Source: Lingula anatina
Taxonomy: Eukaryota > Animalia > Brachiopoda
DNA: 64,000 nt
NCBI GenBank assembly: GCA_051362555.1
Contig: CM120640.1
Coordinates: 14,322,001 to 14,386,000 of the forward strand
Direction of reading: 5' to 3'
Shown piece by piece: positions 19,701-43,995 of this stretch. The notes under the pieces are model-generated. The model was not told where the DNA came from. It was given only the letters and a program-made list of their open reading frames with translations, and ran no database searches. The position numbers were made by a program, and so were the translations under genes. The number at the start of each line of letters is the position of its first letter. The stretch's first letter is position 1.

Positions 19701-22700
19701 CTTTACAAACATTCAAAAAATATTAGAACAACAAATATTAGAATAACTGAAAAAGATTACAAAAATCATAAATAATTATTTATGTAAGAGATGAAAATCT
19801 TTATCAGTAGCACTAAAGAACTGATAAGCTGTAAGAAGACCATTTAATTTTAATTCCATTGATGTGCATATATTTACATATCTGCATTATCTGCAATTTG
19901 AAAACAATATAACATCTATGCTTCCTAAATAAATTAAAAGTGAAAGAAAGAAAAAAATATTTGGTACCATTCTTGAGCAGCAACATAAGAAAGGTTATCA
20001 ACTATGTGTGGTAATGCTGATGGTGTGCTTGGTAAATGTTGTTGCTGATTGTTTCTTTGGCGATTTCCTGTAGTTTGGGAGTTACTGACTGACGTTATGT
20101 CTTGGAGACAATTATTCTGAAAAGAAATATTCTAACTAATATGAGCCTACTTCTTAACAGAACCAAAAGTAATTAGCAACTTTTGTAATTTGTTATATAT
20201 GTGGAGTAATATTTTTTCTCCCGACATTCCCTCAAGGGGACATATAATGCAACATTGTACAGTCCATTGGCAATACATATTTACATTTTTATTTGAGTAA
20301 AACTTATGTCAGTATTTTTACATTTTTCAAGAGACTGGTAAATATAATAAGATGACAGAAAAATAAAAAGAAAACAAAAGTTAGTGTATGCCAGTTATAT
20401 GTACATGGGCTGCTTACCTGGTGCTGAAGAAGCATGCTGGCTGGTATATCTACTCCACAGTGTTCACAGGGAAGTGCTGGATCATCTGCACAAATGGAAA
20501 TCAATTATTTATCATTATCTACAGACTGCTTACAGTATATTGAAATCTAGCATAGTATTTAAAGAAAAATAGTTTTGGGATATAAATTCTACTATCCCTG
20601 TCAGACAATTTTCTCTGACATAATATTAGTAGTGGAATTTTAAAATTTCTGTAAATATTTGTAAGGGGGAGGGGATCTTTAAGCTTCAATGGCAAAAGAA
20701 AACAGAAACCAAAAACATAAATGAAATAATATTACATTAATGCAGAAAACTTCATCATATTCACAGACTATACCTGGCATGTAAAAGTTATGTGAAGATA
20801 TGTCATCAGAGGGTGTTTCTTCCTCAATTTCATTTAAATACTGCATGAGGTCTGCTTCTGTGCCACCTTCAGTTTCAGTAGCAGAGTTCAAGTCATGTGC
20901 AAGATGAAGTGCTAACAGGTGGTCTAAATCTTCACCATCATCTCCATCTGCTTCTAATAAAAACATGTTTATCAATTACGAAAGGTAATATTTCTAATTG
21001 TTTCCCATGTAAATATGACAAACAAAATTCACTCACCAAAAAAAGGGGTGAGAATTAATCTTAAAAACTACTATTGCAAAATTTATATATGGCAAAACAT
21101 ATAGAATAAGAAACATTGAAAAATGCACAGCAGGTGGATTATAAAAATACGTATTCTCATGATTCTAATAATCAATTTCTGAAATTGAAAATTCCCATGT
21201 TTCTTTCCATCCACCTAATGGTAAGATAAACAATAAATAAATTTATAATATCTGAAATGAATAACCATAACAAAAAGACAATTTGGCATTGAAAACAAGT
21301 TCTCTTTTTACCTAGACTCTGATTTAAATTTCTTCCTGGAGTTTTCCTGGACTGTCTGCTTTCATTGGACATCTTTTTCAATAGGGAATTTGTGCCCTGT
21401 GCTACTCCACGTCCTCCCTGTGTTCTTCTTGCAGCATTCGTAACCTTCACCCCTCCTCTCCTACCACCTCCTCTCCCCACAGGATTGTTGATCCTTCCTC
21501 CTACACCAACTTCTGCCCTGTTCATCATTCTTTCTAACTCTTGCATTGAAAAAGGATTCAGCTCAACAACTTCTGGGGTTTCTGTCCTTCTGTTTAACGG
21601 TGTATGTCCATTTGTGTTTTGCGGATAAGTGCAGTTTGTTTCATCATGTTTGTCTTGGTCTTTAAGCATAATGAATTGAGCACATTTGAAGCACTGCTCT
21701 GTGCGCGTGCCACAGTATGATATATGGTTGGGGAGATCATCTGCAGGAAATTCTAGTTCACAGAAACAGCAGGACTGTGGGCGTTTTGGACAATTGTCCT
21801 AGAATATGAAATACAATAGACGTTATGTAATTCTGAAAATTTGTAATGCAAGTTCACAGCATAGCTGTGCTATAAAACTTTCATCAACATTCTTAGAAAT
21901 ATGAACTATAAACAGAGATTACATAATTTTAAGATTTTGAAAAGAGTGTCAATGGCAAATTTGTCATTGTCAAGCAAAATAAATTATAATTTTTGCGACA
22001 CTGGCAACTTATATATATTTGGTCAGGTATATTATATTTTTCATTTTTACCACTGCTTGCTTCAGTAATTATTCAAAATCTACTTTTCTAATTTAAGCAT
22101 TCTATACCGACTCACATTATGCCACCTACAGCATGTAAAGAAAGATACTTGACAACTAGACAATGGAACAAACTTAGTATGTACACAATAATCTCCATAT
22201 TTTTCCTTGAGATTTGTATATCTGATCTTTTTCAAACACTAACCTTATGAGACTCAATATTAAGTTTTTCTACTTCCAAACCGCAAAGTTCACATCCAAT
22301 TGTGGCATGATTTTCTTCAAAGTGATTGTCCATTTCAGACCTTGGGACAGGTTCATTGCAATTTTTACATAATACAATGTTCCTCTTGCAGTGAATTTCA
22401 TGCATCATGTAATTACTTGATGCAATATCACGTTTACTAAAATAAAAAATAGATAAAAATTAAAATAGAACTGGATGAAAGCTAATTTTATTCTTTATTT
22501 ATTACCTTTTACATCAAATATACTTACAATATCAAAATTACTGCAAATTGTAATCACAGAATTTTGTTATTTATGTAGACAAAGATCCAGAATATTATAT
22601 AGTCTAGGCATGAAACAAAATACCCCCTTAGAAGGTAGATACCATAGATCTTCAAAAATATATATATTAGATTTAGGCAAATAACCAAAAATCATACACG

Positions 22701-35663: not shown

Positions 35664-37439
35664 TGAAGAGGTCCCCAAGGAACAAAGCATGCTCATGCCA
35701 TCTCCATCAGTCTTGTTTAGCATTCACAGAGTAATGCTTTAGGTTTTCTATAGATAAATTTTACATGTACAATTTGTTTCTTAAATTATAGAGGGGTAGG
35801 TTTTTGCCTTTCCTTGAAGATGAAGGATGTGGGAGATTTTCATAATTCACTCACTTTACCCACTTGATAAATAGACTTTAGTCTTTTTTAATGCCATTGA
35901 AATGCATGATAAATTGAGTTGTAATTCTAAACAAGCTTACGTGATGTGAAACTGCAATAAACTCCAAGAGCTTAGATGTTTTGGGAGTCGGTAGTTTATC
36001 TCATGAACAAGATTCAAATGAAAATATACCTCTTAGTTTATAAGATTTTCAACCTTATTGTGAAACCTATAAATGATTAACTTCTTCAGTTCAGTGCTTT
36101 AAAATAGAAAAGATCCTCGCAAGAATAACATTTGTAGATTGTTAGCACAAAACTTAAAGTACAGTTGCAATCTGTAAAATATAATTGACACACACCCAAA
36201 ACTTATTTTTACATCCCAAAAGTCCAAATGAATTTTGGTGTTGCAATAATCTTGTCACTGGCTTACTTTCATAATTAAAATTGAAAATCAGATTTTGATA
36301 AGATTTCACATTATGCCTCTTTCGTGTACTTTTTATTCTTCTGGTCCTTTCGAATGACAAATCTGGGACAGTAAAATTTTATTACTATGATTTACTATAT
36401 CACTATGAAAACGTACAAAGGTTGTTAAATGAACATTAGCTGATGATATATGAAACAAACACCACATGGAGAATCGCACTTTAGTCAGTGCTTGATGAGA
36501 AAAGCAGTTAAAGTTGAATTTTTTTTTAAAATTTAAACTTGCATCATGATTGGCAAAACTCCAAATTATCACAATAATGAACACATTTAATTCCAAAGGA
36601 CATTCAAGGCAGAATGCAAGTAAATGTTACTTTATTTCTAATGGCAAAAGCCTATTTTAACTAAAAGAAAAGCATGCACTCTGCACTGCAATATGTAGAA
36701 AAGACCACATACATCTTGATAAAGCCTGTCGCATTTTGGTAATCTTTAAAATTATTAATTAGGAGGCTGAGTTTTTAAAACATTCAGCCATTTTGTAAAA
36801 AGCTTCCTATGAGCTTGTCCTTTTTCTTGAAGTATCTCTTTCAGCAAAATGAAACTGGTATTTGTTCGTCATGTTTGTATTTTAAATAAAATGCCTTCCT
36901 GTATGTCAGTCTTCTGTTGGAATGATTAAGTCTAGCGTAAGTCTACAAATCCAACCCTTGCTGTGTTCTTCTGCAAAAAACAGCATGATCCTCTGAAAAA
37001 ATAATATCAAAATTCAATTTAAAATCAAAATTATATTGTTTATTTTTATTTTTTAATTTCCTATGCGATCCATCAAAAGTGTGATGATGAACACAAAGGG
37101 GAAACTGAATTATCCGATTTCCGTTTCAAGTTTTGAAAGTTTACATCATAAAGTATTATGGGGTCACTTTTGTGTAACTAGACTTTAAAATATGCTTTAA
37201 ATTTAATTATATATACTTTGTATAACAATTATTAACAATTATCTAAAATTTCTATTACCAAACACACAAGAATACCCAATGAATCCTAGCAAGAATTTTT
37301 GTTGTTCAGCACATTATTACTTAAAACCAGCATAATAACTACTCCATATTCAATCTCTTACCTCCAAGGGTTCTTCTTCCAAACATTATTATGTGCCTGA
37401 CTTTTTTTAATTAATTCATTTAACAGTTAAACATCTTAC

Positions 37440-37499: not shown

Positions 37500-37978
37500 C
37501 TAGAAGACCAACACTCTTACTCCTGACAGATCTACCCTAATCTGACCAAATCAATCGGACATCAAATTCCAGTGTGTTCGATAAAAACAACAAATAGAAT
37601 AAAATAAAATACCCATTTTGAAATAGGAAAAAAATAAATCCAACAAATTAAAGCTATGTCACATATGAAATTTTTTGGTCTTTTTCTCTGTGGTTATCAT
37701 AAAGACAGGATTTACAGTATTGTAATTTGGAAAAATTTCAAAAATTCAGAGTTGATGAAGGCAAAGAAGGAGAAAACTGCTTGAAGAACTGGCTGTAAGA
37801 ACAGTTTTCAGGTGTGCCCTACACACTGATGTACAGTTGTTTAAGCTTCTTGGTTACTCATAGTAAGTTTCACAGTTTTTAAAATTTCAAAAAGGGTAGA
37901 TTATTTTTAAACACCCTATACCTAATTCCTCAAACTCATATAAATATGAATTTCATCAAACTGTATAACCCACCTAGC

Positions 37979-38094
37979 TCAGCAGCAGGTGTGCCACTTG
38001 GGGCGCAATAAGTGATATGCTAGGGACAATGTATTCCCTAGCAGTCCCACTAGAGCAATACCATAGAAATAGCCTCTCTTCGCTTTCTCTGGGT
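37979..38094 (-). CDS. MGST3: MGST3 alternative TM4 exon D (most like vertebrate MGST3)
   Basis: ccgtttttttag|ac cca; DPEKAKRGYFYGIALVGLLGNTLSLAYHLLRPKWHTCC*. Donor ag|gtgggt 5 nt after the stop. Confidence 0.85.
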
Positions 38095-41000
38095 CTAAAA
38101 AAACGGCACTCTTAATTATTGAACTGCTCAGAAGACAATTGTCACTTATCAAGTAACTGACAAAACATTGCAAAAAAAAAATTAAATAAATAAAATAAAA
38201 ATAAATCAACCAGGGTAATGCATGCTTTTTGGAATTTTCAGAGCAAACCAATACTTAAGATAAAAGGCATGTTTTTCTGGATCTGAAAAACGGCTTTACT
38301 AATGACTGAACTGCTCAGAAAATGATTTGTCACCATTCAGCAACTGCCAAGGTATAACAAAAGAAAATCAATCGAGGTACACTGAAGGGTAAGCATGCTT
38401 TCTGCAGTCATCAAAGCCAACAGATTCTTCAAGACAAAAAGCACAAGTACCAGCATAACTATGGTTTGCCAAGCATTCCTGCAAAATGTAACCTCATTTC
38501 AACCAAAATGGCTTTTTTCCATGTTTCCATGCAGAAGATTACTACTAAACTTATATCATAAAGGTGAAGCACAGTCATTTTTAATAGTTTGGATGAAGAC
38601 AGGCCTCATTTAATTGCTTCTGGTCAACATTATCAATATTATTTTCTTTTAAAAACTTTTAGTCTTCTTTCAAAGCAGATAAAGCAAGTCTTACTGTACA
38701 TCACCTTTTCAAAAATCTAAGAAAAAAAAAGCTAAAAATTAACCCCAACTTTCGAGTTACCTTTGGCACATACCTGTCAGTCTCCAGTTGATCTCGTCTT
38801 ACACCCCCACTTCCCCCAAAACATTTTACCACTTTAACCACATTATTGGGAGTTAACACCAAGTACACTCCCTCCTTTTTTCTTTTCCTAAGAGCATGAA
38901 GGCCTGTGCATTTTTCAAGTTCCATCTATGACTAATACCCACCAATTCTTAAAAGGCCAGTTGAATCCCTGTTCGTGAATCAAGTGATATCCCAATGAGA
39001 GTGTATTACCAATCAAAATAAGAAGCGGGAATCCATAGATTCTTTCTCCTGCAACACGTTTCGCGGGATCTGTTTTGAGAAAAATTTGAATTACCAACAA
39101 TAGTAGACCAAATCCAGAGACAGACTAGATTCCCTCTCCAAAAAGGAATTGTTAGTACTAGTTTGTTTAGTGAAGCCTTTGTAACTGAAGGGTCGACTAA
39201 AGGCATTTTCATACCATGCATTCTATCTCACCATTCCATTTTCAGTGTTTCGATTTGAGGGATTGACAGCGTAATAGCACAGCTATCACATAAGAGAATA
39301 GCCTAAACAGAGTTTCAGCTACAGAGTGCATGCTCAGTTGGGCTTCTAGCCATGCAGTTGGAAGCAAACTTGTAAAGGAGAGTTAGGTCACCTTCACAAC
39401 CAAAACAGAGCACTACAGATGAAATGCTTAAGATAGAAAGTTGGAACTTTAGTGAAAAGGCCAGAGTGGTTACTTACATAACTTAACGTTTCCAAAACAT
39501 CCCATGGTCTTTGATTAAGTTATAGCCCAGCATAACTGTGCTACCAAGCATTACCAAGCCTGCAATGTGGAAGAATCCACCACGTTTGCGCTTGTTGGGA
39601 TCTACAGGATAAAGTCAACAATAAAAGCAAACCAAACCCTCAGTGCAAGCAAAAACAACAGAAGGTATTTAAAATGATGTGTATATATATATTATGGACA
39701 TAATTTGAATTAGAATTTGTTTTTTTTTTTTTTTTTTGAGAAAATATATTTTAATTTTTTTCACCAAAAGAAAAAAACTAACTTGGTGCTTATATGTGCA
39801 TATTACTGCTCGCTAAATGAGGAATTTGTGGGATCGAAACATATATATACTGATCAACAGGGCTATAGTTGATAAGTAATTAATACTGGTGAAGATTCAC
39901 AAAAATGTATTTAGTCCCCCTTTAAGCTACAAAAGACTATATCATATGATGTCCTCAACTAAAATAAGTCTAAGGCTGTGGTTTGTTAAGATTGAGATAA
40001 CAGAAAAATGGAAATACAAAATAAATATTAACACCAAATCATTTAACAGCAGATAATGTCTTGCTTTCAAATACTTGAATTACCATAAGAAACAAATAAC
40101 AGTTAATAGTGGGAAAATTTACTGACAATTACAATATTTAAAAAAAAAGAGAGAATCTAGGAATAAACAGTGAAGCACATTATATGACAGATTAACATAT
40201 AAATCTTTCTTTTAACTTTCTAAATAATAGAAAAATTGCTATCATGTAGTCACATATTCCAACATTTTTTTTCTTTTTTTTTTTTAAGGGAAGCAAATAT
40301 CATTTATCTGTCACACATCAGAAATTCATGTTATATCCATCATGGAATTTTTTTAGAATTGAATTATTATTCGTGGAATATAAAATTCCAATTCTGAAAG
40401 ATTATAACAGAAATTTTCTGTCTTATTTAAAATGATGAAAAGCTCCAGTAATTTTATATCAAATTTTATCCATGTGTTATATCTTTACCTTTAATTATGC
40501 ATAAAGCCCTTACCTCCAGTATTATAACCAAGTGCATACACTATACGACCCACCAAGTACACGGTACCCATGCCAGCACTGATTTTCTGTAAATTAATAT
40601 ATAAACCATAGAATTACATATATCAAGAGATGGCGTTAATTATATCTTTACTGCTATATTCTCTTTTATTGATTTTGCACAGCCACCATCATATATATAT
40701 ATACAGTATATATTAAACTTAAGTACATTGTACTGCGATGGATTTAGAATTTTGGAAAGAGGTAAAATATCAATATATAGATTTGTTGGCTGCCATCATT
40801 TTTATAACCGTGATTGGTAATCTAGAAACCCTATTTCTTCTTCCCATACTTCCAAGACTATAGTTTTACCACCTGACATGTGTCTAGCTGGCTATCACAA
40901 AACTTACTGGATACTGCAGTCCACCAAGGAAAAGGAGCATTAAAAATGGAGGATAATTTTCAAGACTGAAATTAAAAGAAGACAAAAACACCTATACTAA

Positions 41001-42073
41001 TTACATCGACATTTCTTTGGTATCACAGGATATGGGTGGCTTAAAGTAGACTATCACATAAATGAACGTGGCACAATTAATGGTATTATCTCAGGGACCA
41101 TAACCCTATCGTACTAGCAGGATCACTCCATCTTTGAGGGGATTCTTCCCAAATTGCGTTCAGTTTAAGCATGCACAAAAGTTAATTACCCCCCCCCCCT
41201 AGCAGCTTCAGTGGGCTTGAGTCTTGACAGACATTTTAACTGCTTTACTGAATGCAATTTAGCAAGAATCCCCTTGGGGTTAGATCGATCATGCTAGCAA
41301 GATAGGACTATGGGAACCAAGTCTTAGTATACATACACTGTAACTTAATCACAAAGACCGTACATTGTATTTCAAAGATAAAGTTTCAACTGGTGCATGG
41401 GCAGTCAAGTCATGGGACTTACAAGTTTTGGTGAGACCTTTGGATGCAGTTGAACTGGTTCTCTCCATTGTTGACAGGACTGTATGTTAGAGGATACTGG
41501 AAATGATTGAAAGTTTAATAATGTGTAAATGTATGTTATAATGAACCAAAATATGTTTACTTGCGTAAGGGGTAGAGGAATATAATACAGACACATTGTA
41601 TGCAGAAAAAAAATTTAGAAAAAACAGTACAAAACTAAAGCAGGCAGATTTAAGACAGGTTTAGGAAAAGGAAAGTTTTCGCATATGCAATCACATACAG
41701 TAAATCCCAAGGAAAAATGTTGCTTATTAGTTTTTGTAACCAGCAAAACGGGGCCGTAGCAATAGTCCGCAGGTTCAATACTCCGAAGGTTCATTGGTCC
41801 GAATGTTCACTACAGAACCTTCGAACCAATGAACCCTTGATTAAAAAACCGATGAAAATGTTACCGTTTTTCGGACCAATGAACCTTCGAACTATCGAGA
41901 CACCCCAGCAAAACATTAAATCAGAATTCAAAATGTACACCACTTACCGGAACCTCAAACTTCTTACGGGCATTAGCCACATTCATAGCGTGCCACATAT
42001 TAACAAAGATGCTTCCTGCCCCTGTCATGACCACCAGACCATAGTCTTCAGGGAGAACTTTGGACAGACTCAT
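37979..42073 (-). CDS. MGST3: Microsomal glutathione S-transferase 3 (MAPEG family) with alternative last coding exons
   Basis: Constant exons: 41948-42073 (MSLSKVLPEDYGLVVMTGAGSIF...ARKKFEVP), 41423-41496 (YPLTYS...FNCIQRSHQN), 40908-40965 (LENYPPFL..LGGLQYP), 40514-40586 (KISAGMGTVYLVGRIVYALGYNTG). They are followed by phase-1 exons starting DP.K. A likely non-coding first exon ends at 42566. Confidence 0.93.
38206..38282 (-). pseudogene. Remnant MGST3 exon C (duplicated acceptor with a truncated exon)
   Basis: ccgtttttcag|at cca gaa aaa. The upstream intron is paralogous to that of exon D, but similarity is lost after DPEK (DPEKHAFYLKYWFALKIPKSMHYPG*). Confidence 0.55.
38943..39069 (-). 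CDS. MGST3: MGST3 alternative TM4 exon B
   Basis: aaacag|at ccc; DPAKRVAGERIYGFPLLILIGNTLSLGYHLIHEQGFNWPFKN. Donor tg|gtgggt at 38942; if unspliced it reads on to a stop at 38915. Confidence 0.8.
39483..39601 (-). CDS. MGST3: MGST3 alternative TM4 exon A
   Basis: cctgtag|at ccc; DPNKRKRGGFFHIAGLVMLGSTVMLGYNLIKDHGMFWKR*. Donor-like gtatgtaagt directly after the stop. Confidence 0.85.
41098..41313. repeat. Imperfect ~73-bp inverted repeat (old MITE) in an MGST3 intron
   Basis: 41098-41171 is the approximate reverse complement of 41241-41313 (core ggggattctt..aaattgcgttcagt). Confidence 0.7.
41750..41906. mobile_element. GGGG..CCCC MITE (Mutator-like) with ggttcattggtccgaa repeats
   Basis: TSD (c)agcaaaac of 8-9 bp on both sides; same family as 43706-43879. 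Confidence 0.8.
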
Positions 42074-42565
42074 GATGCTTTATATTAAGTAGCCTTAAAT
42101 GAAGACAATTAGTTAGACCTTGTTTCAATGCACTAAGGCAGCTGATACGTACACATACATACTACTGTAATGCAATATAATCAGCAAATTGAGTCATGTA
42201 GAATTTCTTCTGGAAATTTTACTACATGTACTTCTACATGTACATGTACATGTACATTACGACACACACTTCCATTTGAGTTGAATTATGAAAAATTAAG
42301 TTCCCCTCATGACTCTTGTTAACATGTTTATCCTGACCTTGGTAATTTTATAAAAGTTTGAAATTATTTAAGACTAAAGTTAACTTTCTTGTTGAAATGT
42401 TTTTGAGCACCCATGCACTTTCACTTTAAGAGAACCTAAGTGACACTCCACAAAATTCGATCCCGAAGTGCTCCTTGTTGCAATAAATATTACATGAGTG
42501 TAACCACTGTCATACAAGACTAAATATTTGTGAAATTGTGAAATTTGCTTTTGATAATCCCTTAC

Positions 42566-42725
42566 CTAGCAAGTTGTAAGATGGCGAGCTTGAAGTGCAA
42601 ATCCCAGTAACCTTGACCTAAAAAGACACACGTGTGTGGAGGACGGGTTAGTAGGTCACACGATCTGGGCGTTTTGCTCAACTTTGGAATTTAAATGGGG
42701 TGTGCGTGATTGTGAGCACGTTAAG
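42566..42725 (-). promoter_or_regulatory. MGST3 promoter and non-coding first exon
   Basis: Donor ctag|gtaag at 42565; YY1-like aagatggcg; taaccttgacct; CACGTG at 42629; GGGTTA-gt-AGGTCA at 42645-42658. Confidence 0.5.
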
Positions 42726-42840
42726 TTGATAGGTATCTAAAATAGAAAGCGGCAGTACTTGAACATGACTTGACAATCCTTTAAAAAATAATAAAACTGA
42801 GACTGTATTGGTTACAAAAGTTAATGTAGACTAAATTTAA

Positions 42841-43158
42841 AAGGATAACAACTGTTCATTTTGGCCAAAAAATTAATTTTCCTGGGGTAAACAGCAATTT
42901 TCCCATACTTACCAATGGTAAATGAATCCATTTCTACATTCAAAGTTAGTCCCTGTTTTCCCTCTCATTTTTTTTTTTATAATAATAACAGAGTATAGCC
43001 ATCTGTGGAGGTCACGCAGTCCCATGGCAAGCACAAATTTAAGATTTATTGCTATTACTGTCGTTTTTGTGGTAAAATAGAATATATTATATTTCTATGA
43101 GTTGTTTAAAATGTATTTATTGTGAAATATAGATCACATACAAAGAGTTGTTATCCCT
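42841..43158 (+). mobile_element. Kolobok-like non-autonomous element
   Basis: TIR aaggataacaact / agttgttatccct with TTAA TSDs (42837-42840, 43159-43162); three copies in the window. Confidence 0.85.
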
Positions 43159-43509: not shown

Positions 43510-43995
43510 TACGGAGCTTTAATTGTTAGTATCATATTAAATTTTTTTTCTATTTTCATTTAAGTTTTATTTTATGGAATTTTCACCGTGGTGAAAATAA
43601 TTTACACCGCGGTGGAAAATAATTTACACCGCGGTGGAAAATAATTTTCACCGCGGTGGTAATTACTGGCCATCTCGGCCCGGGTGATGAATAAGTAATG
43701 AGAACGGGGGCGTCTCGATAGTCCGAAGGTTCATTGGTCTGAAGGTTCATTGGTCCGAAAAGTGGTAACATTTTTATCGATTTTTTAATCAAGGGTTCAT
43801 TGGTCCGAAGGTTCTATAGTGAACATTCGGACCAATGAACCTTCGGACTATTGAACCTTCGGACTATCGCTACGGCCCCATGAGAACCTTACATTTCCAC
43901 CGCAGTAGAAATAATTTTCACCGCAGTGGAAATTCCATAAAATAAAATTTAAATGAAAATAAAAAAAGTTAATATGATACTAACAAAGCTCCGTA
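43510..43995. mobile_element. IS3EU-like MITE
   Basis: Ends tacggagcttt / aaagctccgta with long TIRs; 6-bp TSD cagttc (43504-43509, 43996-44001); internal ccgcggtggaaaataatt repeats. Confidence 0.85.
43706..43879. mobile_element. Mutator-like MITE nested in the IS3EU-like element
   Basis: TSD atgagaac (43698-43705, 43880-43887); inverted copy of the element at 41750. Confidence 0.8.

Follow-up and report, generated by a model that had tools for sequence, protein, structure and literature searches.

The window analysed here, a stretch of 64,000 nucleotides from Lingula anatina, contains a gene of the microsomal glutathione S-transferase 3 (MGST3) type, in which a constant coding part of four exons (331 nt in total, ending in phase 1) is followed by three variable exons, termed A, B and D, and by a 3′ UTR exon. 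Together with two decayed exon fragments and the two arms of a weakly predicted intronic RNA helix, the features are, in the direction of transcription:

42565..42620, minus strand: 5′ UTR exon with an approximate upstream end (joint 42092/42565 in each of the four RNA runs)
41948..42092, minus strand: coding exon 1 with ATG at 42073 and helix I, coding part 42073-41948, 126 nt (splice frame, RNA joints, 42/42 RefSeq residues)
41423..41496, minus strand: coding exon 2, 74 nt (splice frame and RNA joints)
40908..40965, minus strand: coding exon 3, 58 nt (splice frame and RNA joints)
40514..40586, minus strand: coding exon 4, 73 nt, helix III, with the common phase-1 donor at 40514 (splice frame and RNA joints)
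39900..39935, minus strand: upstream arm of a candidate RNA helix in the introns around exon A (duplex prediction, weak)
39478..39601, minus strand: variable exon A, helix IV and tail, catalytic-Arg equivalent kept, RefSeq X2 type (entry-joint reads)
39176..39211, minus strand: candidate downstream arm of the same intronic helix, about 110 nt before the acceptor of B (duplex prediction, weak)
38943..39069, minus strand: variable exon B, helix IV and tail, helix longer by one residue, Arg kept, RefSeq X1 type (entry-joint reads)
38450..38491, minus strand: A-like decayed fragment from the middle of exon A (local alignment)
38272..38333, minus strand: remnant C, a copy of the acceptor region and first codons of D, AG at 38283-38284 (local alignment)
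37974..38094, minus strand: variable exon D, helix IV and two-Cys tail, Ala at the catalytic-Arg position (entry-joint reads)
36700..36992, minus strand: shared 3′ UTR exon with acceptors 36992 and 36970, 3′ end approximate with lower depth beyond (joints of A and B, read depth)

As had been predicted from the sequence, each of the three variable exons has its own AG acceptor and a GT donor, located 121-127 nt on. The predicted full-length proteins comprise 149 (A), 152 (B) and 148 (D) amino acids, and skipping of all three exons would leave a product of 127 amino acids without helix IV. In A and D the stop codon precedes the donor by 5 nt; B has no stop of its own, and the first base of the next exon completes its stop codon. 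Past the helix the three tails are unrelated, being basic, aromatic or ending in two cysteines.

The original prediction took the host for a mollusc, yet the DNA is that of a brachiopod, and all 42 residues of coding exon 1 are identical to an L. anatina RefSeq protein named “microsomal glutathione S-transferase 3-like”. The cluster of this protein has three members, including isoforms X1 (152 aa, B type) and X2 (149 aa, A type) of one gene. Over the constant core the window and both isoforms are identical at 110/110 residues, whereas 4/39 residues differ between the window and the RefSeq allele in exon A (Fisher p 0.004 against the core) and 1/42 in exon B; none of the 40 variants listed, out of 332, lies within D. 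RNA runs X4 and X5 carry the RefSeq-type letters in exon A, and the window DNA probably comes from another individual or population than the RefSeq Lingula. The allelic excess in exon A is compatible with relaxed constraint and, equally, with diversifying selection. The RefSeq entries P0001 and P0002 include a second, near-identical Lingula MGST3, which lies on another contig, is two residues apart, and may be an allele, a haplotig or a recent duplicate.

Membership of the MAPEG family is supported by Pfam scores of 92.4 bits for the RefSeq A-type and 90 bits for the B-type protein (curated cut-off 23.4); the variable exons by themselves are not assigned to any Pfam family. Among the matches listed, the named homologues closest to the Lingula protein are MGST3/GST3-like or hypothetical proteins. 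Elsewhere in the window, tblastn matches at 12.6-13.6 kb and 18.7-19.1 kb, considered as further MAPEG genes, were weak (E 0.5-0.8), lacked a long MAPEG-like frame and were rejected as noise. An open frame at 21172-21798 on the minus strand has a Cys/His pattern resembling a TRAF-type zinc finger, and we take it to be TRAFD1/XAF1-like. Dispersed repeats with internal inverted units are present at 41770-41906, 42837-42959 and 43700-43880, the first two of which attract many reads with loose ends on both strands.

For the splicing pattern, four raw-read runs (X1, X4, X5 and X7) of nine with an L. anatina label were aligned to the window. In the four runs summed, 283 reads join donor 40514 to A (144), B (119) or D (20), with A/B/D counts of 87/34/0 in run X1, 22/11/0 in X4, 6/67/14 in X7 and 29/7/6 in X5. 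The acceptors predicted for this donor (39601, 39069 and 38094) are indeed used, A and B in 4/4 runs and D in 2/4 (0/121 reads in X1, 0/33 in X4, 14/87 in X7, 6/42 in X5), which excludes the use of one acceptor alone. The A/B/D sums of 33, 42 and 87 in X4, X5 and X7 are close to the counts of the exon 3-4 joint (32, 41 and 95), so that no large class of splice products is missing. Joints between A and B, A and D or B and D, as well as skip joints, are absent from the 15 joints listed (best 15 of 26), and the use of one variable exon per mRNA is likely. The exit joints of A and B lead to the shared UTR exon at 36992, that of A also to 36970 in run X1; D has a matching donor, and its exit joint is not among the same best 15 of 26. 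Alternative last exons, as they had been called, would each be terminal and have a poly(A) site of their own; A and B are internal, as both splice on to the shared UTR exon. The central expectation of one gene with several products is borne out by the RNA joints, which define three mRNAs differing only in helix IV and tail. A D-type protein is absent from the RefSeq cluster (3/3 members) and from the 14 homologue matches. At 39483, reads of runs X4 and X5 seem to be one base short at the stop codon of A, where the next base would restore the stop.

The ratios of A, B and D vary by run (p about 1e-11 in a chi-square test of distinct starts), with A accounting for 63-68% of distinct starts in X1, X4 and X5 and for 7% in X7. 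In X7, 4415 of 5122 aligned reads match the window at only 90-95%, which suggests that this run stems from a distant population or a cryptic species under the same label. The run-dependent ratios may therefore reflect population rather than tissue, the two being confounded.

The three exons were also correctly recognised as intact, paralogous and of phase 1: shuffle tests and a profile search agree that A, B and D are homologous and in frame. Each of the three pairwise peptide alignments is better than 2000/2000 shuffles, and pairwise DNA identity is down to 49-57%, hence the duplications are old. A profile built from 160 distinct non-Lingula tails (from 191 proteins, one of which could not be split) was searched against the 2967 stop-to-stop segments of the window and found A (E 2e-12), D (9e-11) and B (3e-6), followed at E 0.025 by a chance match of 12 residues. 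Their scores of 26-45 bits fall below the 5th percentile (47 bits) of the tails that built the profile, whose self-scores are inflated. An acceptor scan, a profile search and tblastn revealed no fourth intact exon within the 64-kb window.

Decayed copies accompany the intact ones. Remnant C, which had been noticed previously, holds up as a decayed copy of the acceptor region of D (score 64, 0/200 shuffles) with a likeness that ends after four codons, but not as a spliced exon, since no joint to its acceptor 38282 occurs among the 15 joints listed (best 15 of 26). A second, A-like fragment at 38491-38450 has a local score of 37, reached by 0/200 and 0/500 shuffles, among 21 comparisons. With two remnants at hand, the cassette would appear to turn over by duplication and decay. 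In run X1 only, extra transcribed pieces at 38402-38480 and 38755-38775 are joined to each other (21 reads) and are probably additional UTR exons following B; of the two, 38402-38480 overlaps the A-like remnant and continues into letters absent from the window.

Modelled from an alignment of 111 rows (pLDDT 92.4), the B-type protein has helices at residues 11-39, 56-84, 86-107 and 112-143 and matches MGST2 (TM 0.79) and LTC4S, i.e., the four-helix MAPEG fold; a solved MGST3 structure was not among the 12-13 sequence matches. Helix IV of the model starts at the exon boundary (residue 111), and the swapped exon would, on this model, encode helix IV and the tail. The earlier statement that helix IV lines the hydrophobic substrate cleft holds in the relative LTC4S, for which an excerpt of PMC4014545 names Leu108, Ala112, Leu115, Trp116 and Val119 as lining residues. 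All of these fall within the swapped exon, with an uncertain exact register in MGST3, as the gaps differ between two alignments. A, B and D differ from each other at 15-19 of 32 helix positions. Since the matching LTC4S helix lines the cleft, the pockets of A and B are expected to differ, and both would be active glutathione transferases or peroxidases with different hydrophobic-substrate pockets.

The swap might instead serve the tail (in targeting, lipid modification, stability or partner binding) or the control of the mRNA, and not substrate choice. The unrelated tails, the isoforms of Pomacea canaliculata (P0068, P0146), which have helix IV in common and alter the tail beyond it alone, the two UTR acceptors used by A and the extra UTR pieces of run X1 would all agree with such a role; as half of the helix positions differ too, the catalytic one among them, and one residue is inserted, we regard such an account as very unlikely. 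The reading followed below is that of a swap that changes the enzyme itself.

This concerns not only the cleft. In the alignment, the Arg at the fifth position of the exon is matched by the last residue of an Ala-Lys-Lys-Arg stretch at chain positions 107-110 of MGST2, which presumably corresponds to Ala101-Arg104 given a tag offset of six. According to the excerpted text of PMC7979937, Arg104 of MGST2 binds the glutathione thiol, with Ala or Lys in its place both the thiolate signal and the LTC4 synthase activity are lost, and helix 4 also forms inter-subunit contacts. Because the Arg104 equivalent sits in the swapped segment, the glutathione site is not wholly shared: of the common glutathione-binding core that had been proposed, helices I-III are constant, whereas the thiolate-stabilising Arg lies inside the swapped exon and is lost in D. 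Judged by alignment, the swap would cover the catalytic Arg motif as well as the helix on the substrate side.

The Arg104 equivalent is kept in A and B. D has Ala at this position, where the 160 distinct non-Lingula tails have Arg in 157 cases and Ala in none, and with the conserved Arg replaced little or no catalysis is predicted for D, unless the residues following the Ala (Lys at +1 and Arg at +2) compensate. The family profile is matched by D no less well than by A, and the tail of D ends in two cysteines, as do 11/160 tails near their end. A precedent for such a form is FLAP (ALOX5AP), a MAPEG trimer without enzyme activity (PMC4014545, in excerpt); FLAP is, however, a separate gene, whereas D, for which inactivity is a prediction, would be made by splicing from the gene of an active enzyme.

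Comparable isoform pairs exist in other lophotrochozoans. The survey of other species covered proteins, with gene layouts deduced from them, and drew on the best 120 of 2219 matches and on 19 clusters, so that the phylogenetic spread of the swap is a lower bound. In 4/4 abalone species seen (Haliotis asinina, H. rubra, H. rufescens and H. cracherodii) isoforms X1 and X2 have 0/110 differences in the core and 9-13 of 32 in the helix, and in the nemertean Lineus longissimus X2 and X4 have 0/109 and 12/32, respectively. The pairs are identical up to the position of the Lingula exon 4/5 boundary and then continue with a homologous but different helix IV. Between abalone species the two tails have changed at 1-6 of 42 and 1-6 of 36 positions and the core at 3-13 of 110; both tails thus change at about the rate of the core, which argues that both are maintained. 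The Lineus proteins P0131 (X3), P0148 (X4) and P0149 (X2) show two homologous versions of exon 1 in addition to the helix IV versions, and the isoforms would seem to be combinatorial (exon 1 versions by helix IV versions).

Since these species are known here from proteins and not from genes, the RefSeq pairs could in principle be gene-model chimeras of neighbouring paralogues and not exon cassettes. Oysters do carry separate MGST3 paralogues instead of isoform pairs, and in Mercenaria mercenaria (P0055, P0142, P0143), where X1 and X2 differ at 9 positions, all in the exon-4 (helix III) span, the pair is possibly a chimeric model, as exon 4 of one isoform has letters in common with a close paralogue. 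The same pair nevertheless recurs in four abalone genomes annotated separately, with identical cores, consecutive accessions and a switch exactly at the exon 4/5 boundary, and we consider chimerism highly improbable as the account of the RefSeq pairs.

As to the origin of these cassettes, a tree of the tails (36 columns; 40 rows with named taxa of 191 proteins, unnamed rows being left out) groups A, B and D together (98/79), as well as the two Lineus exons (97/86), and keeps each abalone type together over the species; B and D are on long branches. A His-x-x-Glu motif, found in 32/163 distinct tails, occurs both in abalone X1 and in exon A of the RefSeq allele. This motif would be expected from one ancient lophotrochozoan duplication into a His-x-x-Glu and a non-polar helix, kept in Lingula and the abalones and reduced elsewhere, and a clade of Lingula A and abalone X1 survives the AU test (p 0.077). 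On the other hand, the free tree unites the Lingula exons and the Lineus exons, and the AU test rejects a clade that comprises every His-x-x-Glu/Asp tail (p 0.031), with the caveat that there are 36 columns and 40 rows and that long branches meet; a clade of abalone X1 and X2 is not rejected either (p 0.26). A single ancient duplication is therefore judged unlikely, and separate origins in Lingula, abalones and the nemertean are weakly favoured by these short alignments. The same exon would then have been duplicated separately in abalones and a nemertean.

Taken together, we assign a probability of roughly two in three to the reading that the locus carries three copies of the helix-IV exon on one donor, likely used one per mRNA, and that the predicted enzymes have common helices I-III and, probably, different substrate clefts, weak catalysis being predicted for D. 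D could also be a minor, decaying copy, and the cassette as a whole might be in near-neutral birth and death, with A and B interchangeable and D becoming a remnant like C. An exon that is short, of phase 1, stop-bearing and followed by a UTR exon would be easy to copy with no ill effect, and the two decayed copies within the cassette, the low usage of D and its lack of the Arg, the concentration of allelic amino-acid changes in exon A and the long branches of B and D are all in keeping with neutrality. Yet three frames are still open long after duplication, at 49-57% DNA identity, D retains the helix pattern (E 9e-11) and the two-Cys end (11/160 tails), conservation of the two abalone exons extends over four species, and the A/B/D ratios switch strongly between runs, which leaves near-neutral turnover an unlikely account beside that of distinct isoforms.

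The choice of one exon at a time would be favoured by stop codons that lie at, or 5 nt before, the junction with the UTR exon. In other animals, where this has been examined, a stop codon far upstream of the last junction is a decay signal; double inclusion would place the first stop more than 120 nt upstream of the last junction and might thereby lead to nonsense-mediated decay. In addition, an intronic RNA helix may perhaps loop out exon A: 39935-39900 is predicted to pair with 39211-39176 at -31.6 kcal/mol, a weak candidate given that 3/200 shuffles reach its score and that it is one of six region pairs. No comparable pairing partner was found near D in a docking and selector scan of the six region pairs, and most inverted repeats at the locus are A/T runs. 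The choice among 3′ variable exons in Drosophila pip and PGRP-LC is governed by RNA structures that compete with each other (excerpt of PMC9013439).

Swapping of homologous tandem exons of the same phase into an otherwise identical protein is also seen in ketohexokinase A/C and in Drosophila pip and PGRP-LC, as far as excerpts of the sources go (PMC8373072, PMC9741552, PMC2651755, PMC9013439). Compared with these known cases, that of Lingula is found in a family of trimeric membrane enzymes, the MAPEG proteins, its exon carries the stop codon and precedes a shared UTR exon, and one copy is without the catalytic residue. MGST1, MGST2, MGST3, LTC4S and PTGES have 0 matches in one supplement of the human tandem-exon substitution catalogue.

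Other genes resemble the cassette in design. UGT1A yields several xenobiotic-conjugating enzymes with a common cosubstrate part from one locus, and its variants are chosen by alternative 5′ promoters. The suggestion that the Lingula gene is the reverse of UGT1A is right in that the variable exons are 3′ and the 5′ exons common, but the likeness is loose, as UGT1A uses promoters and Lingula splicing. In delta glutathione S-transferases (GSTs) of Anopheles, a constant 5′ part is followed by variable 3′ exons; these are cytosolic and dimeric proteins of a fold unrelated to MAPEG, and most of the protein is swapped, whereas in Lingula MGST3 one helix is. Human MGST2 and LTC4S have the four-helix MAPEG fold and the Arg at the start of helix IV, as do Lingula A and B; to our knowledge, vertebrate MGST genes have a single helix-IV sequence each, whereas there are three in Lingula, the Arg being replaced by Ala in one of them. 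In Anopheles dirus, splicing of one GST gene into adGST1-1 to 1-4 alters the active site and specificity, as is proposed here (PMC1950890, in excerpt). GSTD1 of An. gambiae is alternatively spliced, going by the title of a reference in PMC12057082, and further spliced cytosolic GSTs occur in Drosophila (PMC4195677, in excerpt). Alternatively spliced insect cytosolic GSTs are hence a closer precedent than UGT1A. The class of tandem-exon swaps and spliced cytosolic GSTs are thus already known, and Lingula A and B are present in the automatic RefSeq annotation. Among the titles and abstract beginnings of mainly open papers, no description was found of a MAPEG exon swap, of its recurrence in lophotrochozoans or of an Arg-less isoform, and the available parts of PMC1761136, PMC4595640 (Lingula genome, main text) and PMC6372189 contain nothing bearing on the MGST3 cassette.

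A wider, speculative reading, which we hold to be distinctly improbable as a whole, is that lophotrochozoans repeatedly made MGST3 modular by duplicating exons (that of helix IV in Lingula, the abalones and Lineus, exon 1 also in the latter, and exon 4 in Mercenaria), and that D is a pseudo-enzyme subunit that would join A or B trimers and silence or retune their active sites, in the manner of FLAP. D would in any case provide a test case for an Arg-less subunit regulating a trimer; catalysis in its relatives takes place at one of three sites. Isoforms that have 110 residues in common and in which helix IV alone is swapped amount to a natural experiment on the residues that set MAPEG specificity, of which the abalone and nemertean pairs are likely independent replicates. 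The natural substrates and the structure of MGST3 are poorly pinned down, and marine stress studies, which treat MGST3 as a single transcript, would pool isoforms of possibly different function.
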